The notes under the pieces: generated by a model
Seen by the model: only the letters and a program-made list of their open reading frames with translations
Told to the model about the DNA's origin: nothing
Database searches by the model: none
In this document: piece by piece, positions 13,372-64,000 of the stretch
Layout: each line of letters begins with the position of its first letter
Numbering within the stretch: position 1 is the stretch's first letter
Translations under genes and position numbers: made by a program
Origin: a virus
Lineage: Duplodnaviria > Heunggongvirae > Uroviricota > Caudoviricetes
Virus record (IMG/VR): IMGVR_UViG_3300037384_000074
Span: 20,112-84,111 of that record
Strand: one strand, 5' to 3'
DNA length: 64,000 nucleotides

Positions 13372-14901
13372 ATGGGTAGCATGGATACATTTTATACGTA
13401 TGTCGGTCAGCATTGGGATGATATCTTAGTGTCTGGGTATGAAAACGGCATCAAATTTAATCGCAAAGTCAAGTATACTCCTTATCTTTTCGTACCAGGC
13501 AATGGCGAATTCAAGACTGTTGACGGTAAGAATCTCTCACGGATTGACTTCGATTCGATCAAAGAAGCTCGTGAATTTGCAAAACAATACGATGAGATCG
13601 CTAATTTTAAGATTTACGGTCTTTCAAACTATCCTTACGTGTATCTCTATGAGAAATACCGTAAACTTAGTGTAGATGCTAAGAAGATTCGAGTTGGTAA
13701 TCTCGATATTGAGACTGATTCACAGGATGGGTATGGCAATATCCAGTTGGCTGATAGAGCCATTGTATCAATTACAATTAAGGTACTCCGCGAAAAGGAA
13801 ATTTTCGTACTCGGGCTCAAGCCATACCAGACGGAAGAGCCTGAATTGCTCGATATGATCACCAAAGGCTACAAGATCAAGTATGTTGAGTGTGTAAATG
13901 AAGCAATGCTGTTGCGTCGTTTCATCAAGATATGGCAGCATTTAGAGCTCGACGCCACGATGGGGTGGAACTCTAAAATGTTCGATATTCCATATATTAT
14001 CAAGCGGATTAAGCAGACCCTTACAGAAAAGGATGCTCTTGAACTGTCGCCTTTCAATCGAATTGACAAGGGCGAAGTCACTATGTATGGAAGAGTGAAC
14101 GATGTGTTCACTATTTGTGGCGTTCCTCACCTTGATTACATTGAGGTATACCAAAAGTTCTCCACGCCTGCGAACGGTAGAGAGGAGTCATATACTCTTA
14201 ACTATATCTCAGGTAAGATTTTGAAAGCAACTAAGCTCGATTATTCTGAGTATAGAACGCTTGCTGCACTATATAATCAGAATTTCAACAAGTTCATCGA
14301 CTACAATATCATCGACGTTCTACGTGTTGAGCAGCTTGAAGAGTACCTAAAATATCTTGAACTAGTGTTCACGATTGCGTATTTTGCAGGCATCAATTAT
14401 GAAGATACGTTTGGAACGATTCGACCTTGGGATATTATGATCCATAATTACCTTATGGATCGCGGGATTGCAATTCCCACAAAGGTTAGAAACACCAAAG
14501 AACGTCAGATCGCAGGTGGACATGTTAAGGATCCACATGTTGGCCGCCATGAACATGTAATTTCATTCGATTTTACAAGCCTCTATCCGATGTTGATTCA
14601 ATCTTTCAATATTTCTCCTGAGACTCTTCTAGGGTCTTTCGACCCAGTTGTTGGTGATTATTCAGTTGATAAGATCCTTTCAGGTATAATGTCACAGTAT
14701 GTTGACGAGATGGTCGAAAATAACGTGGCTATTACGGGTAAGGGAACTGTTTTTTCACGAGATAAACAAGGATTCATGCCGGCTTTGATGCAAGAGTTAT
14801 TTGCCGAACGTAAGCGATATACTGCGATCGAAGAGGCGGCAGATGCTAAGTTAGCTCCGGTGATGACTGAAATTGAGCGTAGAGGAATTAAGACGAAGTG
14901 A
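13372..14901 (+). CDS. DNA polymerase family B, N-terminal portion (exonuclease domain + motif A), gp43-like
   Basis: FDFTSLYPMLIQSFNISPETL equals pol-B motif A and aligns with T4 gp43 FDLTSLYPSIIRQVNISPETI. The ORF ends with ...IKTK immediately before motif B. Confidence 0.85.
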   Translation: MGSMDTFYTYVGQHWDDILVSGYENGIKFNRKVKYTPYLFVPGNGEFKTVDGKNLSRIDFDSIKEAREFAKQYDEIANFKIYGLSNYPYVYLYEKYRKLSVDAKKIRVGNLDIETDSQDGYGNIQLADRAIVSITIKVLREKEIFVLGLKPYQTEEPELLDMITKGYKIKYVECVNEAMLLRRFIKIWQHLELDATMGWNSKMFDIPYIIKRIKQTLTEKDALELSPFNRIDKGEVTMYGRVNDVFTICGVPHLDYIEVYQKFSTPANGREESYTLNYISGKILKATKLDYSEYRTLAALYNQNFNKFIDYNIIDVLRVEQLEEYLKYLELVFTIAYFAGINYEDTFGTIRPWDIMIHNYLMDRGIAIPTKVRNTKERQIAGGHVKDPHVGRHEHVISFDFTSLYPMLIQSFNISPETLLGSFDPVVGDYSVDKILSGIMSQYVDEMVENNVAITGKGTVFSRDKQGFMPALMQELFAERKRYTAIEEAADAKLAPVMTEIERRGIKTK

Positions 14902-14920
14902 CAATTAAGCTAAATAGAGG

Positions 14921-15697
14921 ATGAAACCAAACAGTAAAAAACAGTATATTCAAGAATTGGCCCCAATAATCCAGAACCTCTTAGATTCTGGACTCTCACT
15001 AAGTGAGGGTTGTACTAAACTGGGATTAATATACCACGCGACCTACGCTTTGTTAAAACGTCATACTAATTTAGTAATATCTACTAAGACTAACGGTAAA
15101 AGTGCATCAACATTAAAGGCCTTTCAAAATAAGATCAAAATTCCTGATTCCGAATTAGAAACGATAAAAGATCTATATTTCAATGAAATGATGTGTTTGA
15201 GCGCAATAGGTAAACGTTATAATACAACAGGTGCGACAATTATGTCTTTTATGAAAAGACATAATATCGTTAGACGAACTCATCTCGAAAACAAAATTCG
15301 AATGCTAGATCGACCTGAGTATAGAGCTCAACTAAAAGATTGGGGTGTTCAAGGATATCTAGCTAGACGAACTACACGAACTAAACCTGAACGATTGTTT
15401 GCAGAATTTCTTGAACGTAATAATATAAAATATGAAGAGCAATTTAGACGAGTAGGTAACAAGCACCCTTACGATTTTCGATTGAAAGACTACAATACGT
15501 TAGTTGAAATAGATGGACATTATTGGCACTCCAAACCTGAACAAAAACTGAAGGATGATATTCATACTAATGATGCAATTTCTAAAGGATTTTATGTGGT
15601 CCGTATTTGCACCAGTCAGTTAAAAAATGATAGTTTTAAAGTTATATTAGAGAGATTTTTGAATGAATGTGGATACTCTGTCGAATTTATCGAATGA
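14921..15697 (+). CDS. homing-endonuclease-like protein (Vsr/DUF559-type PD-(D/E)xK nuclease domain) inserted in the polymerase gene
   Basis: The C-terminus VEIDGHYWHSKPEQKLKDDIHTNDAISKGFYVVRI matches the DUF559/Vsr endonuclease pattern (E.DG..H ... D ... G..VvR). AGAGGA RBS. Different codon and amino-acid usage (K/N-rich) from its neighbours. Confidence 0.55.
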   Translation: MKPNSKKQYIQELAPIIQNLLDSGLSLSEGCTKLGLIYHATYALLKRHTNLVISTKTNGKSASTLKAFQNKIKIPDSELETIKDLYFNEMMCLSAIGKRYNTTGATIMSFMKRHNIVRRTHLENKIRMLDRPEYRAQLKDWGVQGYLARRTTRTKPERLFAEFLERNNIKYEEQFRRVGNKHPYDFRLKDYNTLVEIDGHYWHSKPEQKLKDDIHTNDAISKGFYVVRICTSQLKNDSFKVILERFLNECGYSVEFIE

Positions 15698-15813
15698 GGA
15701 ACTGACTAAACACCGTGATTCTCTCGAGCAAGAAGTGTTCCAGAATCATGGGTTTAGCAGCGCGATAAAGGTGTTACTTTAACGGGGGGTACGGCGCACT
15801 TTCGAACGAACAC

Positions 15814-16875
15814 ATGAGGTGGTATGCCGATGATCTAGCAGAGAGTATTACTCTTTCCGGCCAGCTCTCGGTTAAATGGGTAGAGCGTGACGTCAATTTG
15901 TTCCTCAACAACCTATTGAAGACCACTGATGTCGATTATATTGTTGCGATTGACACCGATTCTTGTTATGTGAAGGCTGACGCAGTTGTAAAACGCGCCT
16001 TCAAGGAAGAAACATACGATCAGGAAGAAGTCACTGTATTCCTTGAGAATTTTGCTGCAAAACTTGAACAGGTGATCGCTAACAGCCTTGAAGAACTATA
16101 TATATCAACCAATATCTTCGAGAAGAAGCTTCATATGAAGCTGGAAGCAATTGGTTCTGCTATTTGGACTTCCAAAAAGCACTATGTAATGGCTCTGAAG
16201 TCGTTCAAGGGAGTTCATCACTTCCCTCCAAAGATCAAGATGCAGGGAATCGAGGCAGTTAGATCATCAACGCCTAAGTTCTGCCGTGAGGCAATTAAGG
16301 AAGCTATTCCTAAGATCATTGAGGCAGATCGGGATTGGTTGAAAGCATTCATTGAAACCAAGCGTGAAGAGTTCTCCGAACTACCATTTGATCAAGTAGC
16401 ATCTCCTAGAGGTGTTAGTGATATCGACAAGTGGTTCGACAAGGACTCAATTTACATCAAGCGTACGCCGATCCAAGTGCGTGGAGCATTGCTATATAAT
16501 AACAAGGTAGCAACGACGAAGCTCAATTACGATCTTCCAATGATTCGTAGCGGTGACAAAATTCGATTCTGCTATATGAGACTACCAAATCCGTTAATGG
16601 AGAACGTGTTTGCTGTTCCGGATGAGATGCCAGAAGCGTTCCAATTGGATGACTACATCGATTATAGCAAGCAGTTCGATAAAACGTTCATGGAGCCAAT
16701 CAAGAATCTAATCAAAGCAGCAGGTATCGATATATCTGACAAGATCGACATCACTCAATTCTTCTCGGAGCCGCTTGCAGAGGAAGACCAGGATCCTACT
16801 GCAGGTCTCGATCTAATTGAAGACGATGGGTTCTGGGATAATACTGAAGAGGAAGATACAGTTTGGATAAACTAG
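15814..16875 (+). CDS. DNA polymerase family B, C-terminal portion (motif C + thumb). The motif B sequence is encoded in-frame upstream of this ATG, from 15769.
   Basis: YIVAIDTDSCYV is motif C (DTDS). The in-frame upstream codons 15769-15813 read RCYFNGGYGALSNEH, which matches T4 KILINSLYGALGNIH (motif B). Confidence 0.8.
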   Translation: MRWYADDLAESITLSGQLSVKWVERDVNLFLNNLLKTTDVDYIVAIDTDSCYVKADAVVKRAFKEETYDQEEVTVFLENFAAKLEQVIANSLEELYISTNIFEKKLHMKLEAIGSAIWTSKKHYVMALKSFKGVHHFPPKIKMQGIEAVRSSTPKFCREAIKEAIPKIIEADRDWLKAFIETKREEFSELPFDQVASPRGVSDIDKWFDKDSIYIKRTPIQVRGALLYNNKVATTKLNYDLPMIRSGDKIRFCYMRLPNPLMENVFAVPDEMPEAFQLDDYIDYSKQFDKTFMEPIKNLIKAAGIDISDKIDITQFFSEPLAEEDQDPTAGLDLIEDDGFWDNTEEEDTVWIN

Positions 16876-20004: not shown

Positions 20005-20294
20005 ACACGGCGTATAAGATTGCTGTTCTAGTCGCACTCGGTTCCGTTATGGCCGCATGCGCTAAACCTCCAGCGCCAGTAGTAATTGATCAGACGAGGA
20101 CTGTTGTAATTGCGCCTCCGGAAACTCTTTTGAAATGTCCTGAGTTGAAACAACTGCCTAATCCTGATACTCTAACAAATCAGCAGGCTGTGTCAGTTAT
20201 ATCTAAGCTGGTTGAAAATAACCAAACCTGTGCAATCAATATGGCTCAAATTAAAGCCTATGTAACCCGAGCTAAGGTCACTCATGCTGACTAG
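20001..20294 (+). CDS. outer-membrane spanin lipoprotein (o-spanin, Rz1-like)
   Basis: Signal peptide with lipobox VMAAC, proline-rich AKPPAPVVI segment, conserved Cys; ATGA overlap with the i-spanin gene. Confidence 0.6.
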   Translation: MNTAYKIAVLVALGSVMAACAKPPAPVVIDQTRTVVIAPPETLLKCPELKQLPNPDTLTNQQAVSVISKLVENNQTCAINMAQIKAYVTRAKVTHAD

Positions 20295-27790: not shown

Positions 27791-28831
27791 TTGATGAGTG
27801 GTTTACAGAAGAAACAGATCAGCAAGCTAGTTGCTGACCGAGTAAAGTATTGGGCATTCTCTTTCAAGGATGCCAAGAACTTCAAGGACGGAAAGATTCT
27901 TGAACTAGAGAACTTTGAAGAGCCGACCGACGACGATAAGTCCAAGATTCGAGATTTCCAGCAGAGTATTATCCATAACACTGTAGTTACTGGCGGTGCG
28001 ATCGCCTCAATGCTTCTAGGAGAAGAAGTTAACGATCTCGACATCTATTTTAAGGATCGTGAAATCGCCAAGAAGGTTGCTCATTATTACATCAACACTA
28101 TGAAGGAAAAGCTTGGTACAACCAATCAGGTTTCACGTGTCGAAGTTATGGACAACACAACTGGAGGCGTTGATATCGTCATCAAGTCCATGGGTGTCGT
28201 ATCCGACGATAGCGGTGGTACTGGCGACTATGATTACTTCGAGGGTCGTACGGAAAACGATGTCAACGAATTCTTTAACAAATATAAGAAGGTTGCTGGT
28301 AAGAATGACGAGGGTCCGAAGCATGCGGTCTCATTCATCTCGTCTAACGCAATCACACTGAAGAACGATATCCAGATTATTCTACGATTCTGTGGCGATC
28401 CAAGTGAGATCCATAAGAACTTCGACTTCGCACATTGTACGAATTATTGGACTAGCCACACTGGCACAGTATATAATGAGGAAGCTCTGTCAGCACTGTT
28501 GGAAAGGCGGCTATATTACATTGGCTCACGTTACCCTGTAGCATCTCTGTTCCGAATTCGTAAGTTTGTTGAGCGTGGATATAGAATTTCTGGTGGAGAG
28601 ATCCTCAAGATTGCATATGACGTATCCAAGTTGGACTTAGATGAGGCGCATACACTCAAAGATCAGCTTTGTGGTATGGATCTAGCATTTTTCTCACAGG
28701 TCATTTCAATGCTCAATAACCGCGAACCTGGAACAACAATAGATAGGACATATCTTTTTAACGTCGTGGATCGGATATTCAAACTCGGAGAGACTGATGC
28801 TGATAATGGCATGGAACTTCATAACGACTGA
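27791..28831 (+). CDS. nucleotidyltransferase, CCA/poly(A)-polymerase head-like (pol-beta superfamily)
   Basis: VVTGGAIASMLLGEEVNDLDIYF resembles the class II CCA/PAP head (GGxxxxxLLGxxxxDxDI). Confidence 0.45.
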   Translation: MMSGLQKKQISKLVADRVKYWAFSFKDAKNFKDGKILELENFEEPTDDDKSKIRDFQQSIIHNTVVTGGAIASMLLGEEVNDLDIYFKDREIAKKVAHYYINTMKEKLGTTNQVSRVEVMDNTTGGVDIVIKSMGVVSDDSGGTGDYDYFEGRTENDVNEFFNKYKKVAGKNDEGPKHAVSFISSNAITLKNDIQIILRFCGDPSEIHKNFDFAHCTNYWTSHTGTVYNEEALSALLERRLYYIGSRYPVASLFRIRKFVERGYRISGGEILKIAYDVSKLDLDEAHTLKDQLCGMDLAFFSQVISMLNNREPGTTIDRTYLFNVVDRIFKLGETDADNGMELHND

Positions 28832-28878
28832 CCATTCCACACTATTGTGCTATATGGAGCAGTAAAGAATCGGAAACG

Positions 28879-32906: not shown

Positions 32907-34793
32907 ATGTCTGTAAAGACTGTTGAAGATATTGTTGACCAGCTTAATCAGGCAGCTCTCGCATATGCCGAGGGCTTCCCGATTATGACTGATGAAGAGT
33001 TTGACGCACTTGAAATTCTTCTCAAGCTACGTGATCCTAAGAATGACTACTTCAAGGAAGTAGGCGCACCCGTTCGTGGTGCGAAGACTGCACTACCTGT
33101 AGCTATGGGTAGTCTCGATCAGGTGTATGGCAATGATCTGCTCTCTACTGTTCGTCAGTATTGGCTTACAGATGATGTAGCTATCCTCACGGCAAAGCTC
33201 GATGGCGCTTCACTACTACTTGAGTATGTGGATGGCGTTTTCAAGCGTGCGCTGACACGTGGTGATGGATATGAAGGCCAGGACGTAACGCAGATTTTCA
33301 CTCATTGTGAGTGTGTTCCGAAGAAGGTTCCGGGCATTTTTATGCCGAATCCTCTCTACATTCGGGCAGAAGCTATCTTTACTGAGAGTGATTTCAAGTC
33401 ACTCAATGAGGCTGGAAAGCTCGGCCGAACGTACAAGAACGCTCGAAACTACGTCGCTGGACAGCTAAATCGGCAGTATGCTGATGCTGAAAGCGTGTTT
33501 GTCAAGAACATTCACGTTATTGCATACCAGATCTTCGGCGATTTCAGCAAGTCACATCAGCTTGACATGCTCCGATTATTCGGGTTTGAGATCGCTGAAA
33601 ACCTGACTTCGACGTTCGAATCGCTGGATGAATCGAAGCTTGAGCGTGTCCTACGTCAGTTCAAGTCGAGTGAAATCTCATCAAAGTATGCTATTGATGG
33701 CGTCGTAGTCGATGTGGACGCCAATGATACTCGCGTTCGCCTCGCTGAATCCGACAATCGTGGTAGCATCAACCCGAACTTTCAGTGGAAGTTCAAGATC
33801 AATGACAACCGCACGATCACAACAGTTGTCGATGTCGAGTGGAACATCTCCAAGAATGGATATCTGAAGCCTCGAGTGCAGGTTGAACCTGTTGAGCTCG
33901 CTGGTGTCACTATTTCATTCGCAACAGGCTTCAATGCGAAGTTCATTGAGCTCAATGGTATTGGCAAGGGTGCCAAGATCCAGATTACTCGCTCCGGAGA
34001 CGTTATTCCACTCATCGAGAAGGTTGTGGAACGAGTAGAACCGTCTCTTCCAACTGAGGAAGAATATGGCGAACTTGAGTGGACGCCTAACCGCGTTGAC
34101 CTCAAACTTGTACATGATCACGACGACGCTAAGATTGGTCGGATGATTGATCTGTTTTCGTCACTCGACGTTCCTCAGCTTCGTGAAGGAACTGTGATTA
34201 AGCTGTTTGACGCTGGCTTCCAGGACCCTGCTTCAGTGATTAACGCTAGCCTTGATGCACTGATTCATGCGGTAGGTGATGCTGCTGGTCGCAAGGTGTT
34301 CAACGGTATTCAATCGAAACTGAACCCTGTCACGATCTCTGATCTCGCTGGTTCTTCGCAGGTATTCGGTCGAGGACTCGGGAAGAGGAAGTTCAAGAAG
34401 CTGTTTGAGCAGTATCAGGACATCCTCGGACTGACTCGTGAGCAGATCATCGCTGCCGAAGGGTTCGATGTTAAGAGTGCTGACAAGATTATCGGTGGGA
34501 TGGGAGCGTTTAAGCAGTTCTTGGCCGACATCGAAGGGAAGTATACTCTCAAGATCGAAGGTAAGATCGAGGGTCCCTTGACTGGTATTGGCGTCTGTTT
34601 CACTGGAGTTCGCAGCAAGGAACTAGAGGAAGCTATCACTTCAAAGGGTGGTCGAATCGATAGTTCCGTCAGCAAGAAGACGACTCACCTCGTCTGCAAG
34701 GATCCGAATAGCGGGTCTGCGAAGCTCAAGAAGGCTTCTGATAGTGGCGTAAACGTTCTCTCGATCGAGAATGCATGGAAGCTGTGGGGTTGA
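32907..34793 (+). CDS. ligA: NAD-dependent DNA ligase LigA with C-terminal BRCT
   Basis: Adenylation motif LTAKLDGASL (KxDG); 628 aa; C-terminal GVCFTGVRSKELEEAITSKGGRIDSSVSKKTTHLVC is a BRCT domain. Confidence 0.85.
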   Translation: MSVKTVEDIVDQLNQAALAYAEGFPIMTDEEFDALEILLKLRDPKNDYFKEVGAPVRGAKTALPVAMGSLDQVYGNDLLSTVRQYWLTDDVAILTAKLDGASLLLEYVDGVFKRALTRGDGYEGQDVTQIFTHCECVPKKVPGIFMPNPLYIRAEAIFTESDFKSLNEAGKLGRTYKNARNYVAGQLNRQYADAESVFVKNIHVIAYQIFGDFSKSHQLDMLRLFGFEIAENLTSTFESLDESKLERVLRQFKSSEISSKYAIDGVVVDVDANDTRVRLAESDNRGSINPNFQWKFKINDNRTITTVVDVEWNISKNGYLKPRVQVEPVELAGVTISFATGFNAKFIELNGIGKGAKIQITRSGDVIPLIEKVVERVEPSLPTEEEYGELEWTPNRVDLKLVHDHDDAKIGRMIDLFSSLDVPQLREGTVIKLFDAGFQDPASVINASLDALIHAVGDAAGRKVFNGIQSKLNPVTISDLAGSSQVFGRGLGKRKFKKLFEQYQDILGLTREQIIAAEGFDVKSADKIIGGMGAFKQFLADIEGKYTLKIEGKIEGPLTGIGVCFTGVRSKELEEAITSKGGRIDSSVSKKTTHLVCKDPNSGSAKLKKASDSGVNVLSIENAWKLWG

Positions 34794-34794
34794 T

Positions 34795-35088
34795 ATGGAA
34801 ATTGAGACCTCTGAGCTCTCATTCAACGCTACTATCGTTAACCGCTTGAAAGAACTAGGGTATTCCAAGTTCTTCACAACTGATGTCCGCCTTGGAAACT
34901 ATGAAGGACGCAACTTCATCGTACGAGGTTGGGCTGTTGACGATGATTTCGAGTATCAGTTCACCAATCGTTTTCCTAAGGATACCACAATCATCGTCTA
35001 TGAAGGATATGTTAAGGATCCTTCTGCCCCAATTTTCTCATTTGCTCCAATTCTATCAGAAAGTGATATCAATGAAGTTCAACGCTAA
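34795..35088 (+). CDS. hypothetical protein
   Basis: ATG 34795 lies 1 nt after the ligA stop. Confidence 0.4.
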   Translation: MEIETSELSFNATIVNRLKELGYSKFFTTDVRLGNYEGRNFIVRGWAVDDDFEYQFTNRFPKDTTIIVYEGYVKDPSAPIFSFAPILSESDINEVQR

Positions 35089-35296
35089 CTATCAGTCTAT
35101 CGATTCCCTGATCGGCACCACTGTTATTCTCAACAGTGGCGGCCCTCGTATGACAATCAAGAAGGCTCGTGTCACAACCACCCGCCCCACTCTCGATAAG
35201 GAAATCACCAATGTGTATGTCACATGCACTTGGTTGAACGATGAATATGGGATCGGTGAAGCTGAATACCCAATCGAATGTGTAAAGGTTAACTGA
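35072..35296 (+). CDS. hypothetical protein
   Basis: 74 aa from ATG 35072. Confidence 0.35.
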   Translation: MKFNANYQSIDSLIGTTVILNSGGPRMTIKKARVTTTRPTLDKEITNVYVTCTWLNDEYGIGEAEYPIECVKVN

Positions 35297-35297
35297 G

Positions 35298-35429
35298 ATG
35301 AAGAAGTATATCAAAGTAATCGCAATCTCTCTCGCAGCTCTCTCACTCGCTGGCTGTCTAACATCTGAAGAGAAGTACTGGAAGCAGGCGACTCCTGTTA
35401 TCTCTGACATCCTCAATAGCCCAAAATGA
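35298..35429 (+). CDS. small lipoprotein (43 aa)
   Basis: Signal with lipobox LAGC. Confidence 0.3.
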   Translation: MKKYIKVIAISLAALSLAGCLTSEEKYWKQATPVISDILNSPK

Positions 35430-35517
35430 AGATAGAGCTCATCAAGCACGAGCCAAAAAGGTTCCCAGATATCAACAATCCAGACGAATTCGCACTCAAG
35501 ATCACGAACGACTTCAA

Positions 35518-35925
35518 ATGAAACTGACAATCATTCCATCTAGCAATCCCGATCGTCCCTGGGTCCTAGTGCCAACTCACACAATCAGTAAGTCAATCCC
35601 TCTCGCTGAGCTTACTGACGAAGGCGCTAAGATCGTATCAGAAGCTATCTATAACGGAGAAAAGATAGGCTTCCTCAATGGTCCGCCAGACTGGAACCGT
35701 ATCGATAAGGTCCGGCGTTACAATAAGCTCAATATCAAAGACGTTTTCCCGAAGTATGTGATTGTTCAGGGAGACCCCAACAAATATAGTAAGCCTGTTT
35801 GGTATGTTGAACAGATTACAGGTAAAGGTCCTAAGTATCGCTTAATCAATTGTGATTCCGAAGCAAGGTGTAGGCAGTATCTGGATAATTTGGGAAAGGC
35901 TTGCTGGACCGTTAGATATTTTTGA
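35518..35925 (+). CDS. hypothetical protein
   Basis: 135-aa ORF. Confidence 0.45.
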   Translation: MKLTIIPSSNPDRPWVLVPTHTISKSIPLAELTDEGAKIVSEAIYNGEKIGFLNGPPDWNRIDKVRRYNKLNIKDVFPKYVIVQGDPNKYSKPVWYVEQITGKGPKYRLINCDSEARCRQYLDNLGKACWTVRYF

Positions 35926-35944
35926 CAAAGATTCGAACGTAGAC

Positions 35945-35981
35945 GGGTAATAATATTACCCTTTTATACCATGGTATAAAA
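35945..35981. promoter_or_regulatory. two adjacent palindromes: a terminator-like hairpin plus a 20-bp perfect palindrome
   Basis: GGGTAAT-aat-ATTACCC, then TTTTATACCATGGTATAAAA. Intergenic between 35925 and 36014. Confidence 0.4.
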
Positions 35982-36013
35982 ACGGTCCAAATTAAATGAT
36001 TGGAGAGATATAA

Positions 36014-36241
36014 ATGTTGGTAATCGCGGTACTTTTTATTTGGTTTTTGAGCGGATTTCTGCCCGCGATTTACATGTGGTATAGGGATCCATCGTATACC
36101 GAATTGACCGTGCGCGAGCTCGCACAGATGTGTACCGTTGGCGCATTTGGCCCCGTTGCACTCGTTTGTTGGATCTATCACAATGTTGATACCGACAAGT
36201 TCTGGAATTTCACGCTGATTACGAAGAAAGAAAAGTCATGA
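36014..36241 (+). CDS. small membrane protein
   Basis: Two hydrophobic helices. Confidence 0.4.
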   Translation: MLVIAVLFIWFLSGFLPAIYMWYRDPSYTELTVRELAQMCTVGAFGPVALVCWIYHNVDTDKFWNFTLITKKEKS

Positions 36242-36326
36242 TTACATGCTCGTTCCAAATGATGATTACAACGAGTTAATGAGTGAAAAAGTTAACCTCG
36301 CTCAGTGTTAGTAGGTAACAAATGAT
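36238..36326 (+). repeat. direct repeat R1, copy a (89 bp, ~81% identical to 37518-37606; last 35 nt nearly identical)
   Basis: ATGATTACATGCT...AACCTCGCYCAGTGTTAGTAGGTAACAAATGAT present twice; it ends with the start codon of the downstream ORF. Confidence 0.75.
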
Positions 36327-36346
36327 GAAGGAAATGAGCTCCTAAA

Positions 36347-36661
36347 ATGCTGAATCGCATTGTATATTACGGTAATGACGGGGCAGTTGTAAGTGAAGTC
36401 GAGAATCAGTCGCTCGATATCTCAATTGACTTCCGTTTTGCAAGTCTCTACACTGACTGTAAGTCTCTCACTTTGACCAAGAAAGAGATCGACCAGTTGT
36501 GGCCTGTTACTAGCAATGGTAGGTGGGAGAAAGAGAGATCCTCTGGAACTCCGAAAAGGATCGCCGCCTCGCAGTTCATGTCCTACCTGTTCGGCAAATA
36601 TTACGAAAATAAGGTGCGAAAACGCATTGAGGACCGTAAATTGCTCGACTATCTTCGGTGA
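36347..36661 (+). CDS. hypothetical protein
   Basis: 104-aa ORF downstream of R1 copy a. Confidence 0.4.
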   Translation: MLNRIVYYGNDGAVVSEVENQSLDISIDFRFASLYTDCKSLTLTKKEIDQLWPVTSNGRWEKERSSGTPKRIAASQFMSYLFGKYYENKVRKRIEDRKLLDYLR

Positions 36662-36984
36662 TAACCACGAATTATTGCCCGAAACCTGCGGTAGAATACA
36701 TTCCCCGTCTAGGCCGGGCGGCTCGCGTGGACGTGCGCGTCCACGGCCAGCACGGCCGGCTGCTGATGATCGAGATCAAGGCAGAGGCGGGCAAGGCCAG
36801 CGAGGAGCAGCAGGACCGGCACGCGCTGCTTATCGGGCTCGGATACATGGTGGTGACGATCCACGCCAGCACCGAAGACGAATGCGCCGACTTGGTGGAG
36901 TCGATCGTTGAAGAGTGGCTGGCGGTGGGCGCGGCGGCGAATGACAATGAGTTACCGGCCAAGAAAACGCGAATTAGGGCTTGA
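36658..36984 (+). CDS. chimeric ORF: phage N-terminus fused to a GC-rich VRR-NUC-like nuclease fragment
   Basis: The first 18 aa (NYCPKPAVEYI) are encoded by repeat R2, which is also inside ORF 37602. The rest is ~68% GC. VDVRVHGQHGRLLMIEIKAEAGKASEEQQ matches the VRR-NUC D...E.K...Q core. Confidence 0.45.
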   Translation: MITTNYCPKPAVEYIPRLGRAARVDVRVHGQHGRLLMIEIKAEAGKASEEQQDRHALLIGLGYMVVTIHASTEDECADLVESIVEEWLAVGAAANDNELPAKKTRIRA

Positions 36985-37042
36985 CGCCCTAGGGCATTTA
37001 GCCTATATTCACATCCATGGACAGCGGCGGTGCCGCAACGAG

Positions 37043-37246
37043 ATGGAGACGGAAATGACCAAGGCACAGGCAATCAGCCAGATGATCCTCGATCAGGCTC
37101 AAGCAAAAGCGAACTTCCGATTTTCATCGATGGCCACCGACGTAACCGCCATGAAAGAAGCCATCGACTTCGTGCTTGGCGCTGGCACCTACGACCGTCT
37201 CGTCTCCGACTTGTATGACGAGCTCCGCGCTAAGGCGAGCAAATAG
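37043..37246 (+). CDS. small GC-rich ORF (67 aa), hypothetical
   Basis: High-GC codon usage; followed by a strong terminator. Confidence 0.35.
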   Translation: METEMTKAQAISQMILDQAQAKANFRFSSMATDVTAMKEAIDFVLGAGTYDRLVSDLYDELRAKASK

Positions 37247-37266
37247 CCCACCACACCACTAACCAC

Positions 37267-37293
37267 AGCCCGGCCACGTGCCGGGCTTTTTCG
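37267..37293 (+). terminator. rho-independent terminator inside the GC-rich island
   Basis: AGCCCGGC-cacgt-GCCGGGCT followed by TTTTTCG. Confidence 0.65.
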
Positions 37294-37517
37294 TTCGGAC
37301 TTAGGACAACTCTGCCGCACCGATCTAATCCAGCCCGCCACGCCTCCAGAGCGCCTATATCGTGGCAGTTCACCGTGGGGAGGCATCTGGTGCAGCCAGA
37401 CAACGACAACACAAAATGGACGGCCGAGCAGCGCGAGGAGCGCAGCTAGGCCCCCAGGGGGTGGTCCGCGTGATCCCGGCCTCAATATGTGGCTGGTTTT
37501 CAAGAATAACGGCACGG

Positions 37518-37606
37518 ATGATTACATGCTTGTGCCGCATGATGTCTATAACGAGTATATTTGTAAACTGGTGAACCTCGCCCAGTGTTAGTAGGTAACA
37601 AATGAT
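37518..37606 (+). repeat. direct repeat R1, copy b
   Basis: See 36238-36326. It ends with ATG 37602 of the downstream ORF. Confidence 0.75.
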
Positions 37607-37811
37607 CTGCAGAACGATCGAAGAAGCCTTATTTCACGCTCAGCAGACTGCGAATCACTTGATTTCTCTCGGCTGCAATGACGTTTGGATCGAATATAAT
37701 CGCGAAATATGCGCTGTAAACGTGTATTATTGCCCGAAACCTGTGGTAGAATGCATCGAATTGAGCTGCATCAGAGATGTTGAAGGGAATTATGTTCATG
37801 TTGAACTTTGA
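37602..37811 (+). CDS. hypothetical protein; contains repeat R2 (37726-37756) internally
   Basis: 69-aa ORF; residues VYYCPKPVVECI are shared with the chimeric ORF 36658. Confidence 0.35.
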   Translation: MICRTIEEALFHAQQTANHLISLGCNDVWIEYNREICAVNVYYCPKPVVECIELSCIRDVEGNYVHVEL

Positions 37812-38265
37812 AGAAGTGAAGGCAAACCGCAGGAAGTGGATCGATTTTCTTCGTGAAGATGGCCGTAAGAAAGCGGTCGATGCTCTCGATGTAGGTAATG
37901 AAGAACGTTGCTGCTTAGGTCACGCTTGTTTCGTCCTCGGCGTCGAACAGCATGTCAGTGTTAGCCAGGAAAATTCTAATGGAATCTTTTACGGAAAGGG
38001 ATGGAATTGTGGAGCAGCTCCTGCAGAGCTGATAGAGCTCGTTGGACTAAGAAGCAGTGGCGGTTCATTCGCACCATTCACATTTGCAGTAGAAATGAAC
38101 CTGCAGTCGTTGATGATAACTTCTCTCGCTGAACTCAACGACAAGACCAATTATACGCCAAAAGAAATTGGCGACTTCATTGAGAGCCACTATGACTACG
38201 TGTTCCTCAACGAGGAAGAATATATGGAAAAGTATGAGGTGGTTTCACCGTGGACCCTTCGTTAG
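37777..38265 (+). CDS. hypothetical protein
   Basis: 162-aa ORF; alternative ATGs at 37792 and 37798. Confidence 0.4.
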   Translation: MLKGIMFMLNFEEVKANRRKWIDFLREDGRKKAVDALDVGNEERCCLGHACFVLGVEQHVSVSQENSNGIFYGKGWNCGAAPAELIELVGLRSSGGSFAPFTFAVEMNLQSLMITSLAELNDKTNYTPKEIGDFIESHYDYVFLNEEEYMEKYEVVSPWTLR

Positions 38266-38306
38266 AAATAGCGGAGGGTCCTTTATCAACTGAGGGAGAT
38301 CTTGTC
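38252..38306 (+). promoter_or_regulatory. intergenic cassette copy 1: hairpin + TTTATCAACTGAGGGAGA 5' leader
   Basis: GGACCCT...AGGGTCC stem, then CTTTATCAACTGAGGGAGATCTTGTC ATG. Confidence 0.55.
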
Positions 38307-39783: not shown

Positions 39784-39808
39784 GACCTATTTATCAACTG
39801 ACATATCA

Positions 39809-40303
39809 TCATTTCAATAGGTCAGACTTGACCGGAAATCCGAAGTGTTCGATTCGCTCGAATGCAGTAGGCGATGCTACGTGGAAGGCTGTTATATAGC
39901 TTCGGATATTAGTCAAGTTTTTGTTAACAATCCGCTCTTCATATTCGTTCATACCGTACACAGGATCGTCCTTTAGATACCGACTCTTCGCCATATGGAA
40001 CGGTACCTGTGTATGATAGAAATTGTAAGTCTGTAACTTGTATCGCTGACGGATTTTTCTTTGGTCGAGCTCTATAACAACAGCATTGATCTTGCTGCGT
40101 GAAAGAGTAGTCGCCCAATCTAAGGCGTATTTGAGACTGCGGGTTAATGATACTACCTTCGTCTTATTGTCATCTTCACCCTCAGATATCCTACCTTCTA
40201 AGGTATTCTGATGCATTATAGACTCGAGTCTATCAACCGTAGTGCCGTGATATAGTGGTGCTGAGTGGCTTTCCGCCAGGAATTCGAGGAAGGTTTTCAT
40301 CAC
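39809..40303 (-). CDS. ADP-ribosyltransferase-fold protein (diphtheria-toxin/Tpt1-like), paralogue B
   Basis: PLYHGTTVDRLESIMHQ..LEG and KVVSLTRS resemble KptA [21 protein letters not shown]...HYVHLS; NEYEE acidic catalytic candidate; shares the MKTF.EF..E N-terminus with paralogue A. Confidence 0.5.
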   Translation of the reverse strand: MMKTFLEFLAESHSAPLYHGTTVDRLESIMHQNTLEGRISEGEDDNKTKVVSLTRSLKYALDWATTLSRSKINAVVIELDQRKIRQRYKLQTYNFYHTQVPFHMAKSRYLKDDPVYGMNEYEERIVNKNLTNIRSYITAFHVASPTAFERIEHFGFPVKSDLLK

Positions 40304-40895: not shown

Positions 40896-41078
40896 ATGCG
40901 CCCTTATGGTGGAGATCGTACTTATTACGACTGCCGGACTTCCAAGAAGGTTGGTAAGCCGATCAAGGTCGAGCAGGATCACCACGCGAAAAAGTCTCGC
41001 GCTCGTCGTGAGGGCAAGGTTGACCTTCTCGGGGAAATCAGTGAAGGTCCTTTATCAAATGAGGAGAGCACGTCATGA
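40896..41078 (+). CDS. hypothetical protein; its 3' end encodes cassette copy 5
   Basis: 60 aa; the C-terminus KVDLLGEISEGPLSNEESTS is translated from the cassette sequence. Confidence 0.35.
   Translation: MRPYGGDRTYYDCRTSKKVGKPIKVEQDHHAKKSRARREGKVDLLGEISEGPLSNEESTS
41021..41074 (+). promoter_or_regulatory. intergenic cassette copy 5 (embedded in the upstream CDS 3' end)
   Basis: TTGACCTTCtcggggaaatcagtGAAGGTCCTTTATCAAATGAGGAGAGCACGTC ATG. Confidence 0.55.
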
Positions 41079-41263
41079 AGGCCTTCAACATTGAATTCGA
41101 ATTTACTTCGTCGAAGGCCTATGGCGACAATTACAAGCTGTATGCGACTGTGGAAGCGAAGAATGCTGAGCAGGCCCTTAACATCGCGCATATAGTTGGC
41201 TTCAAACAATTCGGTGCGCGGTTTAACGACAACTGCATCGATTGGCGGATCAAGAACGATTGA
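41075..41263 (+). CDS. hypothetical protein
   Basis: 62-aa ORF. Confidence 0.4.
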   Translation: MKAFNIEFEFTSSKAYGDNYKLYATVEAKNAEQALNIAHIVGFKQFGARFNDNCIDWRIKND

Positions 41264-41290
41264 TTGGCCCTACCAAGAGGAGATCGCATC

Positions 41291-41599
41291 ATGAAAACGG
41301 TTCTGGTTCACTACCGCACGAATCCCGACTATTATGATGATGACGTCGAGCTTTACCACGCCGATTATGTTCTCGATGTCGCGAAGCTTCGCGCTGTTGT
41401 TGACACTGATGACTGCTACTATGCTCAGAATGAGATCAAGAAGATCCTGTGGCTCGTTGACAATCCCACGAAGCTCTGCGATCTCCACGAGCACGACAAA
41501 TATACGCTCTATGATACGTCGTGGGAGCTTGAGCTCGTTCTCGCTGATGATCAGGAGAGCAAGGCCGATCTCGAGATCACTGTCCTTCTCAACGCGTGA
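41291..41599 (+). CDS. hypothetical protein
   Basis: AGGAGA RBS, ATG 41291. Confidence 0.45.
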   Translation: MKTVLVHYRTNPDYYDDDVELYHADYVLDVAKLRAVVDTDDCYYAQNEIKKILWLVDNPTKLCDLHEHDKYTLYDTSWELELVLADDQESKADLEITVLLNA

Positions 41600-41617
41600 A
41601 AAGAGGAGTTTCGAATA

Positions 41618-41908
41618 ATGTTTATGGTCTGCGTTTACCATACTGAGTATGGATCTGACAGCATTCATGGTCACATCGACGAATCTACGATGAAACTCGA
41701 AGAAACTGCCGAACGATGTTTCGATCAGATCATCGAGTGGCAGATCGGTGGTGGAGGAAATTCCTTCGAAGGATATACGTTCTCTCACTACCGGATCTTC
41801 GAGATCAAACACTCCAAATTCGTTCCGTTCCGCACGTATCATGACCTCGATGATTTCCTGGCCGATATGCGGCAGCGGAAAATCAAAGTCAAATTATACA
41901 CGATTTAA
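41618..41908 (+). CDS. hypothetical protein
   Basis: 96-aa ORF. Confidence 0.45.
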   Translation: MFMVCVYHTEYGSDSIHGHIDESTMKLEETAERCFDQIIEWQIGGGGNSFEGYTFSHYRIFEIKHSKFVPFRTYHDLDDFLADMRQRKIKVKLYTI

Positions 41909-41926
41909 TGAACAGGAGTTACTACA

Positions 41927-42430
41927 ATGCGTAGTATCAAAATTTCCAATGGCATGAAGATCTGTATTGAGAACTCGATCGTTCCTCGAGGCCAGTCAAT
42001 CTTCATTGAGACTGCCGAAGGTCCAGCCTACAGGAGCTCTAGTGTCGCTGAGTTTCTTATCAGGCTCGAAGCTGGGCGATACCTCGAGCGTACCGACTAC
42101 GTTGATATCATCTCTCTCTGGTTTGGCCAGGAGAACAACACGAAGATCGATGCCTATATTCGGAACACCGTGACAGGCGGATTCTATCGTTTCAATTGCG
42201 ATTATCCGGATCAGCCCAATTGTCTCAAGCTGTTTGATGCTACTGGAGGCCGTGGAGATTACATCTTCGAGAAAGATTCGATGCCTTATGAGCGAGACAA
42301 TCTCGAGGTCACTGAATATAAGATCTACGCGTTTCCGACCGGCCGAAAAGTCTATGAAAACGGTACTCTTGTCGGTTATGACAGGCACGGCGATAAGATC
42401 AAGGAAGAAGTTGAAGAGGATTTCGACTAA
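41927..42430 (+). CDS. hypothetical protein
   Basis: 167-aa ORF. Confidence 0.5.
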   Translation: MRSIKISNGMKICIENSIVPRGQSIFIETAEGPAYRSSSVAEFLIRLEAGRYLERTDYVDIISLWFGQENNTKIDAYIRNTVTGGFYRFNCDYPDQPNCLKLFDATGGRGDYIFEKDSMPYERDNLEVTEYKIYAFPTGRKVYENGTLVGYDRHGDKIKEEVEEDFD

Positions 42431-42621
42431 TGGCACAACATTGCGCAGCGTGTGGAAGAGCACTTATTCGCGGCGATACGAGGTGGGAATCGGCTATATA
42501 CGGCTCGCATCACATCCTATGCGAACCATGTGGTCACGATGAAGAGCAGTTGATTGACAATGTCGGAACGAATGACCTTCCGAACATTCTCGAGCTCTAT
42601 GGCCCGCCAAATGATCGATAA
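42430..42621 (+). CDS. small zinc-ribbon protein
   Basis: CAACGR...CEPCGH, two Cys pairs. Confidence 0.4.
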   Translation: MAQHCAACGRALIRGDTRWESAIYGSHHILCEPCGHDEEQLIDNVGTNDLPNILELYGPPNDR

Positions 42622-60614: not shown

Positions 60615-60635
60615 CATTCGTTGATAAATAGGTTC

Positions 60636-62006
60636 ATGCAACCAACTCTCTCACTATATCTAAACACAAATGCCCCTGCTAAAAGAATTCAATTCTTAGG
60701 AGTTGACTTTACAGGATCTGTCGTTGAACTTGTTCTAACGAACCTAGTGACATCAGAGGAGATCACTCTTTCGACAGCAGATGATGAGATCTCAATTGAT
60801 CAAGACATTGTTGTTTGGGATTACGATCAAACAATTTTGGAACAGCTTCCGGTAGGAAATTGGACATCCTTTTCTGTGTATCGCAGTATTGGTGAAACGC
60901 GCGAATTCATTGGGTCCGGTCGCGTCTCCATAATTGCAAATGGTGGATACCAGGTCGACAACGGTACAATGGTTATCAACGTACCAGGTGTTAGAGGACC
61001 TGCTGGTACGCTTGAGGTTGATAGTGTTGTCACTCTCGATCCCGATGAAGATGCATATATTGAAGAGCTCGGTACCAACACTGAGTCCGCGTGGAGAGTA
61101 GGCATCCCTCGTGGATACACTGGGTTAACTCCAGATATAGAGATTTTATCAACCACAACTCTAGCTGCAGGACAGCCCGCCACGGTGACGCTCGATCCGA
61201 GCAGCACGCCGGAAGAGCCGAAGCTGGTGTTCGGGGTGCCGAAGGGCGACACGGGCGCGACGCCGGACATCTCGGTGCTCTCGACCGCCACGCTGGCGCC
61301 CAGCCAGCCCGCCACGGTGACGCTTGACCCGAGCAGCACGCCGGAAGAGCCGAAGCTGGTATTCGGCGTCCCGCGCGGTGACACGGGCGCGACGGGTCTG
61401 ACGCCTGCAATCTCGGTGCTCTCGACTTCTACCCTTGCGCCGGGATCGCAGGCAACCGTCGCGCTCGATCCCTCCAGCACCCCGGAAGCGCCTAAGCTCA
61501 ACTTCGGCGTCCCGCGCGGCGACACGGGAGACACGGGCGCCGCTGCGACGATCGTGATTGCTGGCACGGACACGCTTGCCCCCGGCGCGCCGGCAACCGT
61601 CGTTAATGAGGGCACGTCCGCAGCGGCAAGCCTGCGTGTTGGCATCCCTGCCGGCGTGCAGGGCCTGCCCGGCGCCCCCGGCGAGCCGCTGGCGCTGGTG
61701 GTGAGCGACACGACAGATATCGGCCTCGGTGGATGGTGGGTGGCGCGAGATTATCACGGTGCCGCCACCTGCGATTATCTCCGCGCGGAAATGCTGGTTG
61801 GTGAGGCCGACGCTGTGACGCTTGCCGTGCGGAAGAATGGCGCGACCGTCCGCAGTGGTATCGCACTCGGTGCCGGTGTGACTGTGATCACAGATCTTGG
61901 CCTTGTGCTCGCAGAAGGCGACCAAGTATCCGTACATCGCGTTGGCGGCGGTACGCTCACAGGACCATGGATGATGCTAGTTCAAATCGACGGAAGGACG
62001 CCCTGA
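60636..62006 (+). CDS. tail fibre-like structural protein with tandem 40-aa repeats and a short collagen-like stretch
   Basis: Three tandem copies of (L/P)xxISVLSTxTLAxxQPATVTLDPSSTPEEPKLVFGVPRGDTGxTG; GIPAGVQGLPGAPGEP; GC rises to about 68% within the gene. Confidence 0.6.
   Translation: MQPTLSLYLNTNAPAKRIQFLGVDFTGSVVELVLTNLVTSEEITLSTADDEISIDQDIVVWDYDQTILEQLPVGNWTSFSVYRSIGETREFIGSGRVSIIANGGYQVDNGTMVINVPGVRGPAGTLEVDSVVTLDPDEDAYIEELGTNTESAWRVGIPRGYTGLTPDIEILSTTTLAAGQPATVTLDPSSTPEEPKLVFGVPKGDTGATPDISVLSTATLAPSQPATVTLDPSSTPEEPKLVFGVPRGDTGATGLTPAISVLSTSTLAPGSQATVALDPSSTPEAPKLNFGVPRGDTGDTGAAATIVIAGTDTLAPGAPATVVNEGTSAAASLRVGIPAGVQGLPGAPGEPLALVVSDTTDIGLGGWWVARDYHGAATCDYLRAEMLVGEADAVTLAVRKNGATVRSGIALGAGVTVITDLGLVLAEGDQVSVHRVGGGTLTGPWMMLVQIDGRTP
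61131..61531 (+). repeat. tandem repeat, about 3 x 120-132 bp, inside the tail fibre gene
   Basis: ...GCCACGGTGACGCT(C/T)GA(T/C)CCGAGCAGCACGCCGGAAGAGCCGAAGCTGGT(G/A)TTCGG... is repeated. Confidence 0.7.
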
Positions 62007-63361: not shown

Positions 63362-64000
63362 CACAAATGACTTATACTGAAATCGGAAAACCTGTCATTG
63401 ATCCTGCGATGTTAGACCTGTTTGTTTATAATGAACAGGGCCTCTGGCTCGACCCCTCCGACCTCTCGACGCTCTTTCAGGACACGGCCGGGACCACCCC
63501 TGTAACGGCTCCGGGGCAGACCGTGGCGCTTGCGTTGGATAAGCGCTTGGGGCTTCGACGCGGGCCGGAATTGGTATCGAACGGCGACTTCTCGAATGGG
63601 CCAGCGGGGTATGTTGAAGCTCTGAACGGCACAATCAGCTACGCAAACGCAACCATGTTGGCGACGGGGACGACTGGCAATACTGGCGTGTATCGGGATG
63701 TTGCAGTTGTTGCCGGCCGCCCATATCAGGTATCGTGGCGGCAGGTTTCGGGCTCCAATAATCGCATCAACATCTATAACGGCGCGTCCTTCGCGTCTTC
63801 ACTTTACAACAATGGGGTGGGTGACACTATAACGGGCACGAGGTCTGTAATAGTTCTGCCTACCGCAACAGTGCTCCGAATTTATATCCACACTGCTCCG
63901 GGCTTCACGGCAGAGTTCGACAACGTTTCTGTGCGCGATCTTGAGGGTAATCACCTAATCCAGCCTGTAGCCCTCTCGCGCCCGACGCTGGGGCGACATC
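63358..64000 (+). CDS. tail fibre-like protein, 5' partial (runs past the window end)
   Basis: ATGA overlap. N-terminal LSTLFQDTAGTTPVTAPGQTV...RLGLRRG repeats the module of the upstream gene, and recurs as HLIQPVALSRPTLGR at the window end. Confidence 0.5.
   Translation, partial: MTQMTYTEIGKPVIDPAMLDLFVYNEQGLWLDPSDLSTLFQDTAGTTPVTAPGQTVALALDKRLGLRRGPELVSNGDFSNGPAGYVEALNGTISYANATMLATGTTGNTGVYRDVAVVAGRPYQVSWRQVSGSNNRINIYNGASFASSLYNNGVGDTITGTRSVIVLPTATVLRIYIHTAPGFTAEFDNVSVRDLEGNHLIQPVALSRPTLGRH

Follow-up and report, generated by a model that had tools for sequence, protein, structure and literature searches.

A recently gained 759-bp island of temperate-phage origin in the genome of an uncultivated large lytic phage

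We analysed a GC-rich island in a 64,000-nt stretch of DNA from a virus of the Caudoviricetes (positions 20,112 to 84,111 of the IMG/VR record IMGVR_UViG_3300037384_000074); this whole stretch is referred to below as the window. The island occupies positions 36712–37470 and is a gain of exactly 759 bp relative to two 97%-identical relatives, and it is recent. Its probable origin (we estimate roughly 0.75) was the homology-independent capture of degraded temperate-phage DNA at a break. A first-pass annotation of the window had instead proposed capture by recombination between duplicated cassettes, marked by two flanking repeat pairs, R1 and R2; this did not hold, as the left joint of the island lacks homology and the repeats are older than the event. 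All features of the locus for which window coordinates are given lie on the plus strand.

The boundaries of the insert were determined by alignment with two contigs that carry the empty site. They came from two separate sources, L012 (14.4 kb) being an ENA contig and L013 (1.9 kb) a JGI contig, and were found through P0021, the second member of the 90%-identity cluster of P0012, the protein of the right neighbour of the locus. Both were 96–97% identical to the window across every shared segment. Window positions 34071–36711 were colinear with L012 7042–9679, and positions 37471–38298 with L012 9680–10507; L013 aligned likewise. In these contigs the empty site reads CCCCGTCTA followed directly by TGATCCCGGCC (in a longer base-level read, ..CATTCCCCGTCTA followed by TGATCCCGGCCTCAATATG..), and in the window the 759 bp sit between the two. 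Zero phage bases were lost or duplicated at the insertion point, and the base-level comparison with L012 and L013 revealed no target duplication at the joints. The insertion falls in the spacer between an open reading frame (ORF) of 104 codons, ORF104, and a 34-aa ORF that precedes geneB. The native spacer to the right of the insert (37471–37517, equal to L012 9680–9726) holds the ATG (37487) of the 34-aa ORF, which enters the right-hand copy of R1. Genes for proteins of 135, 75, 104, 69 and 157 aa follow one another in the same order in the window and in L012/L013. The first-pass annotation had placed the foreign segment at 36702–37517; the GC-rich island was indeed there, but its limits had to be moved to those given by the empty site. 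The comparison with related phages that it proposed found the island absent from L012 and L013 at the same site, and the filled site set against the empty ones bore out its view of the locus as a snapshot of accessory-gene acquisition.

Both joints lie in unique spacer sequence, 10 nt to the right of R2a (the left copy of R2) and 47 nt to the left of R1b (the right copy of R1). At the left joint, phage and donor share zero bases: ..GTCTA in the phage and ..GATTG in the donor both stand ahead of GGCCGGG. The right joint is flanked by 31 nt that match no donor, and homology there is not assessable. Terminal inverted and direct repeats of the insert scored no better than shuffles, and the longest k-mer common to the insert and the rest of the window was 13 nt. 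The GC content of the insert was 0.614, compared with a mean of 0.441 (standard deviation 0.027, maximum 0.503; z = 6.3) for 759-nt segments of positions 1–60900. In 200-nt segments the GC content climbed from 0.37–0.48 to 0.55–0.67 between about 36700 and about 37500. The earlier annotation was right on where the GC jump, both repeat pairs, the ORFs and the terminator lie.

By its nucleotide matches, the insert is a patchwork from GC-rich alphaproteobacterial temperate siphophages or prophages. The donor loci have a GC content of 0.58–0.63 and carry Prim-Pol, terminase, portal and HK97-type capsid genes; their VRR-NUC gene sits between a Prim-Pol/DUF3987 primase gene and the terminase-portal-HK97-capsid block. 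Of the donor contigs, one is a Ferrovibrio metagenome-assembled genome (MAG) and another has an IMG/VR entry as a viral genome. Among species genomes, the VRR-NUC donor family occurred only in the Ferrovibrio MAG and, as a fragment, in Ancylobacter. The VRR-NUC piece of the window (36746–36984) was 87% identical at the nucleotide level to L001 and 80–82% to L002–L005. The absence of the GC-rich DNA from two 97%-identical relatives, together with 80–95% nucleotide identity to GC-rich temperate-phage and prophage contigs, upheld the earlier claim that it is foreign and recently acquired. The suggested BLAST of the segment was partly fruitful: temperate-phage and prophage contigs, the Ferrovibrio MAG and the Ancylobacter fragment were matched, and INPHARED was blank, blastn of the island alone giving no match there. 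A plasmid search returned a single 32-nt match, which was taken as chance. The VRR-NUC profile retrieved from IMG/VR only L003 again and two distant loci, and a 25-mer conserved with L001 had 0 matches when scanned in viral contigs.

The segments of the insert could be assigned one by one. The first 34 nt (36712–36745) are a primase fragment that matches L004 9415–9448, in the prophage of the Ferrovibrio MAG, at 32 of 34 positions. The primase homology begins at the very first island base; the fragment lies inside the Prim-Pol/DUF3987 primase gene and holds the palindrome CGTGGACG..CGTCCACG. It is joined to the 3' half of a divergent VRR-NUC gene (36746–36984), and the sequence at this internal joint is GTGGACGTGCGCGTCCACGGCCAGCACGGCCGG. 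The joint falls in an 18-nt stretch (36728–36745) in which the primase homology overlaps VRR-NUC-like DVRVHGQH (DVRVYGQH in homolog P0008); a pattern scan for this primase/VRR-NUC junction gave 0 matches in metagenome and viral contigs. The VRR-NUC 3' half and the leader of the cassette behind it (window 36752–37058) were 87% identical to L001 553–861, and the leader (window 36975–37055) was 95% identical to its second L001 copy (1237–1318). A terminator, the DNA upstream of the next gene and the start of that gene (window 37266–37439) matched L001 1706–1879 at 94%, and the upstream DNA of the truncated next gene (37296–37389) was likewise 94% conserved. The start of the next donor gene is a 19-codon frame at 37390–37449 (VQPDNDNTKWTAEQREERS and a stop), whose homolog of 62+ aa starts at L001 1830. 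Before it stops, this frame matches the following L001 gene over the first 17 residues of the latter; in L004 the syntenic counterpart of this donor gene lies downstream of VRR-NUC. The right end is a filler of 31 GC-rich nt (37440–37470; GCGCAGCTAGGCCCCCAGGGGGTGGTCCGCG) with no match in any donor locus. The insert thus preserves the order of the donor genes (primase, VRR-NUC, small-ORF cassette, next gene), but it has an internal deletion, and each of its ends cuts into a gene.

Another truncated remnant of the VRR-NUC family was seen in the Ancylobacter oerskovii chromosome (L011 3001–3090), where only the last ~30 residues remain; it was 78% identical at the nucleotide level to window 36861–36950. 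In L001 the leader occurs twice (785–861 and 1237–1318), each copy before a different small ORF (58 aa and 56 aa). Downstream of VRR-NUC, these temperate phages therefore carry an array of exchangeable mini-cassettes.

The sole intact gene of the insert encodes a 63-aa protein (37055–37246; MTKAQAISQM..DFVLGAGTYD.LVSDLYDELRAKA) with conserved homologs; the remaining coding pieces are truncated remnants. It had been annotated as a 67-aa ORF at 37043–37246. That ORF exists, but the homologs begin at MTK, and the real start is therefore the ATG at 37055. The family comprised 270 representative clusters, nearly all of 50–70 aa, and the protein belongs to a small-protein family of temperate phages; in L014 a family member opens an early operon next to a CI/Cro-type region. 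The conserved cassette leader ahead of the gene (36975–37054) corresponds to one of the two L001 copies. It contains a sigma-70-like TTGACG-17-TATATT at 36981–37009 with 10 of 12 consensus positions, a GGAG Shine-Dalgarno sequence and a palindrome TAGGGC..GCCCTA across the -35 box. Both L001 leader copies keep this palindrome and the two promoter-like boxes (-35 and -10). Behind the gene lies an intrinsic terminator (37267–37295), with an 8-bp stem (37267–37287) of which 7 pairs are G-C, followed by the T-run TTTTTCGTT; the stem is kept in L001 and the loop differs. The island thus carries a strong terminator of its own, as the first-pass annotation had stated. With its predicted promoter and terminator around a temperate-phage early gene, the insert appears to behave as a moron.

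The 63-aa protein was modelled as three helices (predicted local distance difference test score, pLDDT, 92) and had no match in Pfam, PHROG or PADLOC; larger proteins containing the 63-aa domain were without a Pfam domain. A Foldseek search with the model found nothing significant, and its top PDB matches, histone folds with E >= 0.57, were not relied on. Seventeen of the 18 top PDB fold matches were of this kind (H2B, NF-YB/C, CENP-W; TM-score ~0.6). The helix lengths of the model (19, 12 and 18) are unlike the short-long-short histone pattern.

The two flanking repeat pairs are real. R1 (36238–36326 and 37518–37606) is 89 nt long with 81% identity, and R2 (36662–36701 and 37717–37756) has a 31-nt core matching at 29 of 31 positions; the R1 and R2 cores each occur exactly twice in the window, compared with 0 expected in shuffles. 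The earlier coordinates and identities stood, with two amendments: R1 is fully identical over its last 24 nt, and R2 extends to 40 nt at 85%. R1a (36238–36326; L012 9206–9294) consists of a C-terminal coding remnant (..DYMLVPNDDYNELMSEKVNLAQC and two stops), a Shine-Dalgarno-like sequence and an ATG. This ATG opens a 7-codon mini-ORF (36322–36345) that ends 1 nt before the start of ORF104. R1b (37518–37606) consists of the C-terminal part of the 34-aa ORF (..DDYMLVPHDVYNEYICKLVNLAQC and two stops), a Shine-Dalgarno-like sequence and the ATG of geneB. R2a (36662–36701) is a geneB-like coding remnant (..NYCPKPAVEY..), and the same frame stops at a TAG after 10 codons in L012/L013; R2b (37717–37756) is inside geneB. 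In L012, without the island, R1a and R1b match at 73 of 89 positions and R2a and R2b at 30 of 40, in the same order as in the window, and the order in L013 is likewise. Because the island-free relatives already carry them in this order, R1 and R2 are older than the insertion. They were left behind when a small gene pair was rearranged at an earlier time, R2 being a piece of geneB. No alignment between ORF104 and geneB was found and the enclosed sequences are unrelated; R1..R2 are therefore not two copies of one gene pair with conserved content. The idea that the repeats bracket the insert as products or substrates of the event had to be given up, since all four copies also occur in the relatives that lack the island, and neither joint falls inside any of them.

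R2a carries a conversion-like patch at 36688–36697, with 6 substitutions in 10 nt relative to L012/L013. Over positions 36290–37621 without the island, the window differed from these relatives at 7 positions in all, 6 of which were within the patch. The patch makes positions 36671–36702 identical (32/32) to the R2b of L012. It also removes the in-frame TAG that closes the frame in the relatives, and therefore a chimeric 108-aa frame opens. These features are suggestive of a short gene conversion from R2b, 14–24 nt from the joint. A second cluster, of 5 substitutions in 10 nt relative to L012/L013, was observed at 36228–36237, just upstream of R1a, and alters the C-terminus of the neighbouring 75-aa ORF.

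In the course of events that we propose, a cell carrying a donor-type phage or prophage, or co-infected by such a phage, would have been infected by the large phage. A double-strand break in the phage spacer would then have been sealed by homology-independent joining, and one fragment, or several ligated fragments, of degraded donor DNA would have been trapped as filler. The R2a patch may have been left by an attempt to repair this break by recombination with the nearby paralogous copy. A left joint without shared bases, and an insert that combines a primase piece with a VRR-NUC block and 31 unmatched nt, are the features of capture of the nonhomologous end joining (NHEJ) type. NHEJ capture of heterologous DNA at breaks was demonstrated in Sinorhizobium meliloti (Dupuy et al., 2019; PMC6379672). 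In this phage lineage, breaks are plausible because L012 has two homing-endonuclease-like genes and the polymerase gene of the window is split by a Vsr-like gene. The window encodes a NAD-dependent ligase and a UvsX-like recombinase.

Several points weigh against this reading. The evidence that the island is correctly assembled is a database count, namely two contigs with island proteins. Substitution clusters are common, with about 5 in 1.7 kb between the window and L012, and the position of the patch near the joint could be a coincidence (the rough chance of a cluster within 25 nt is ~0.15). Finally, the best donor match is 87–95% identical and has different small-ORF cassettes; the primase/VRR-NUC deletion and the 31-nt filler may therefore predate or accompany the capture.

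Replicative template switching, by copy-choice or microhomology-mediated break-induced replication, could have produced the same insertion in place of end joining. It would account for insert segments that are not contiguous in the donor, for an internal primase/VRR-NUC joint inside an 18-nt overlap of both homologies and for the templated look of the R2a patch, and the phage has a UvsX-type system of recombination-dependent replication. The left phage/donor joint, however, has zero microhomology, and the right one is not assessable; we regard template switching as possible but unlikely. Capture of the GC-rich DNA by recombination between duplicated R1..R2 cassettes, with the repeats as part of the event, is very improbable. 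Both repeat pairs do flank the island, and R2a, beside the joint, has a patch identical to R2b. However, island-free L012 and L013 already have the arrangement R1a-ORF104-R2a-spacer-R1b-geneB(R2b), the joints lie outside the repeats with the spacer intact on both sides, the donor DNA has no similarity to R1 or R2, and the R1-to-R2 sequences of the two copies are unrelated.

Since the window was assembled from a metagenome, an assembly chimera with temperate-phage reads deserves mention. We think such an artefact highly unlikely: two wrong joins would be needed at one phage nucleotide with no base lost, there is no shared k-mer >13 nt to mislead an assembler, and the island proteins P0001 and P0022 and the neighbour P0012 each occur on 2 contigs. 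Two states alone cannot give the polarity of an indel, so the island might also be ancestral and have been lost from L012/L013 by precise deletion. That is scarcely credible for DNA whose composition is 6 standard deviations above the phage background and which is 80–95% identical at the nucleotide level to GC-rich temperate phages, with genes truncated at both ends; no end repeats could drive a precise excision, and the deletion would need to restore the uninterrupted spacer exactly. Equally hard to credit is a mobile element, be it an insertion sequence, a miniature inverted-repeat transposable element, a homing cassette or a site-specific integrating module. The insertion is discrete, and homing-endonuclease-like genes do move in this phage lineage, but the island encodes neither a transposase nor an integrase nor an endonuclease, terminal inverted repeats and a target duplication are lacking, its donor genes are cut at both ends, and no second copy was found in the window or in phage, plasmid, IMG/VR and metagenome collections. 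HNH, GIY-YIG, LAGLIDADG and Vsr matches were absent from the island ORFs, and an Rfam search found no intron, its single sub-threshold microRNA match being a chance match.

A chimeric reading frame runs across the left joint. The 108-aa ORF (36658–36984) starts with a GTG that overlaps the ORF104 stop (GTGA). Its residues 1–18 are phage sequence (R2a and spacer), residues 19 to ~23–29 are the primase fragment read out of frame (~5–11 residues), and the rest is the C-terminal half of a VRR-NUC protein. The ORF is therefore a real in-frame chimera starting in R2a, as had been annotated, and the island does hold only the 3' part of the VRR-NUC gene. R2 was said to encode the N-terminus of this ORF and to lie inside ORF 37602 as well; R2b does lie there, and R2a encodes approximately residues 5–15. 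Fusion to R2 is not what shortened the nuclease gene; inside the GC-rich DNA, its 5' half has given way to the 34-nt primase piece. Protein matches of the ORF, at 100–85%, were confined to its last ~85 residues. No Shine-Dalgarno sequence was found at either start (GTG 36658 or GTG 36727); the latter is the start of the 85-aa protein P0001 as recorded in JGI data.

The donor family of this piece appears to be a divergent VRR-Nuc family, as sub-threshold PF08774 matches, a sequence match to 4QBL and VRR_NUC top fold matches all point that way. The 108-aa ORF alone had no Pfam family at E <= 0.01, weak PHROG matches, and tblastn matches of 37–40% to VRR-NUC genes of Rhizobium and Sinorhizobium phages. 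In alignment A1, which comprises nine relatives (P0002–P0010) and the window ORF, 7 of 10 rows had sub-threshold PF08774 matches (the best with 18.5 bits against a cut-off of 23.8). The P0002–P0010 profile matched 4qbl_A as its sole PDB match (E 0.02), over the PD..ExK..Q region. Foldseek with the P0002 model placed 4qbn, 4qbo and 4qbl on top, with a probability of 0.84–0.92 but E values of 0.14–0.3, and one donor-family member is named VRR-NUC by NCBI.

Full-length homologs of the nuclease piece have 162–188 aa. The P0002 model comprises helices at 30–43, 112–123 and 136–153 and strands at 58–60, 88–93, 98–104 and 127–132. In the window copy the sequence sets in with the Asp of the PD motif, at about residue 88 of P0002, so that the N-terminal 87 residues are missing, and with them the N-terminal hairpin, helix 1 with a nearly invariant Glu (E31 of P0002) and strand 1. 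The complete E-PD-ExK(+Q) active site is absent from the 108-aa ORF: the D, ExK and Q are present and the helix-1 Glu is not. The chimera is thus most likely inactive as a nuclease, and the 108-aa frame is probably a by-product, an accidental read-through of R2a into half a nuclease gene. It could instead be a selected neo-gene, the half VRR-NUC acting as a dominant-negative poison of the resolvase of the temperate phage, resident or competing, that it came from. The R2a patch would then have removed the stop, the GTGA overlap would have coupled its translation with ORF104, and the kept strands 2–4 and helix 2 would include dimer-interface elements of stand-alone VRR-Nuc resolvases. If so, the chimera would be a weapon of phage-phage competition built from the rival's own gene; we consider this improbable.

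The window encodes a ribonucleotide reductase, a split family-B DNA polymerase, a DnaB-like helicase, a primase and a UvsX-like recombinase, and also a tRNA nucleotidyltransferase, two tRNAs, an RNA ligase and a NAD-dependent DNA ligase. The nearest matches of this ligase are the enzymes of jumbo phages that infect Alphaproteobacteria and Xanthomonadaceae (Sinorhizobium phage Phosso, 42%; Atu_ph07, 36%). The 3-kb locus had no match among INPHARED phages by megablast and blastn. From the set of replication, recombination and nucleotide genes, the jumbo-phage-like ligase and the lack of an INPHARED match, the window therefore belongs to an uncultivated large lytic phage with replication and recombination genes of its own; its contig is entered in the databases with a length of 136 kb. 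Around the insert, the native genes are a 75-aa ORF for a predicted membrane protein on the left (36014–36241; also in L012 and L013), ORF104 (36347–36661; in L012 and L013, without a family match and unrelated to geneB), geneB (37602–37811, 69 aa; in L012 and L013) and the 155-aa ORF of P0012 on the right (37798–38265), whose family forms tandem arrays in distant relatives. In IMG/VR, relatives of ORF155/162, ORF104, geneB or the chimeric ORF were not found, and a pattern scan for the R1 core gave 0 matches in metagenome contigs. The more distant L006–L009 (55–60% aa identity) have only the ORF155 family in common with the window; their neighbouring genes differ, and they are uninformative on the insertion site. 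In L006 (2–1284) and L008 (2142–3627), 3–5 tandem ORF155/162 paralogs were observed, compared with one copy in the window.

The window and its relatives differ in further features. L012 77–919 and 6120–6878 (window 28797–28872 and 33946–34071) hold two homing-endonuclease-like genes, one HNH/NUMOD3 and one DUF723, that are missing from the window. The DUF723 gene splits the NAD-dependent ligase of L012 into ORFs of 383 aa and 264 aa, compared with one 628-aa ORF in the window. The DNA polymerase of the window (13372–16875) is in two ORFs of 509 aa and 353 aa. The 258-aa ORF between them (14921–15697), with a weak, below-cut-off match to Vsr-like endonucleases (E 2.7e-5), is probably a homing-endonuclease insertion. 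Two segments of the window are absent from L012: ~0.47 kb at 39794–40267, with a 164-aa minus-strand ORF, and ~1.7 kb at 40898–42618, with ORFs of 190 aa and 167 aa; none of these ORFs had a Pfam match. An intergenic motif, TTTATCAACTGAGGGAGA, stands 5–8 nt before an ATG at 38283, 38757, 38982, 40872, 41046, 42651, 50346 and 52460, and is preceded at 38252–38281 by a hairpin, GGACCCT..AGGGTCC. Several of its copies are at indel boundaries between the window and L012 (38298/38436, 38780/39122 and 40898/42618), and the motif may be a promoter or ribosome-binding-site element that mediates cassette exchange.

A second GC-rich block extends over window 61100–64000 (GC 0.55–0.74). The ORF at 60621–62006 shifts from phage-typical to high GC mid-gene, near 61100; it has 3–4 tandem repeats of ~43 aa (..TLA..QPATVTLDPSSTPEEPKLVFGVP.GDTG..) and a minor-tail-protein PHROG match. 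The ORF at 61967–63361 resembles tail proteins of RcapMu, Rhizobium phage P106B and XacN1 at 28–32%. The block may be a foreign tail-fibre module.

The island is an event of a known kind, a moron-type acquisition, and not a new kind of system. Morons are units of 'more DNA', a concept of Hendrix and Juhala (summarised in PMC4378225). Like them, the island lies between two genes that are adjacent in L012/L013, has a base composition unlike that of its neighbours (GC 0.614 compared with 0.441) and has a single intact coding region between a promoter-like site and a factor-independent terminator. Unlike them, it drags along dead fragments of three donor genes (primase, VRR-NUC and the next gene) and a 31-nt filler; with these still present, the island is therefore a raw, untrimmed capture. 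The recipient is also a large lytic phage and not a lambdoid temperate phage, and both the donor lineage and the exact empty site are visible here. The island resembles NHEJ capture in S. meliloti (PMC6379672) in being a homology-free insertion at a single break in an alphaproteobacterial setting, and tandem or multi-fragment insertions were observed in those experiments. The experimental ends usually had small deletions, whereas no recipient base was lost here; the recipient is a phage genome, and the mechanism is deduced from its sequence.

The closest known proteins to the nuclease remnant are the stand-alone viral and bacterial VRR-Nuc Holliday-junction resolvases (PF08774; structures 4QBL, 4QBN and 4QBO; Pennell et al., 2014; PMC4103454). 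Its full-length relatives P0002–P0010 align to 4QBL, and the window copy keeps the D, ExK and Q. It differs in being the C-terminal half only, with the N-terminus swapped for 18 phage residues and ~5–11 primase-derived ones.

T4-type phages shuffle cassettes at repeated intergenic elements (promoter-early stem-loops) in hyperplastic regions. The locus is similar in that its small-ORF region has many indels between 97%-identical phages, with TTTATCAACTGAGGGAGA at several of the boundaries, and in that R1 ends in a conserved junction of stop, Shine-Dalgarno-like sequence and ATG. The GC-rich island, in contrast, is not bounded by any such repeat. Shuffling at repeat elements may therefore account for the indels nearby and perhaps for the older R1/R2 structure, but it does not explain the island.

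Phage genomes gain most of their novelty from morons and other accessory indels, and the acquisition of these is usually invisible, the joints having eroded; the mechanism has been called 'mysterious' (PMC4378225). Here a filled site, two empty sites and donor relatives are all available at base resolution, and they support illegitimate capture at a break, and not repeat recombination, as the entry route. The locus also indicates that lytic phages exchange DNA with temperate ones of the same host range. On a more far-reaching reading, which we consider improbable, it would be a natural, base-resolved example of end-joining capture as the long-unknown mechanism of moron acquisition.

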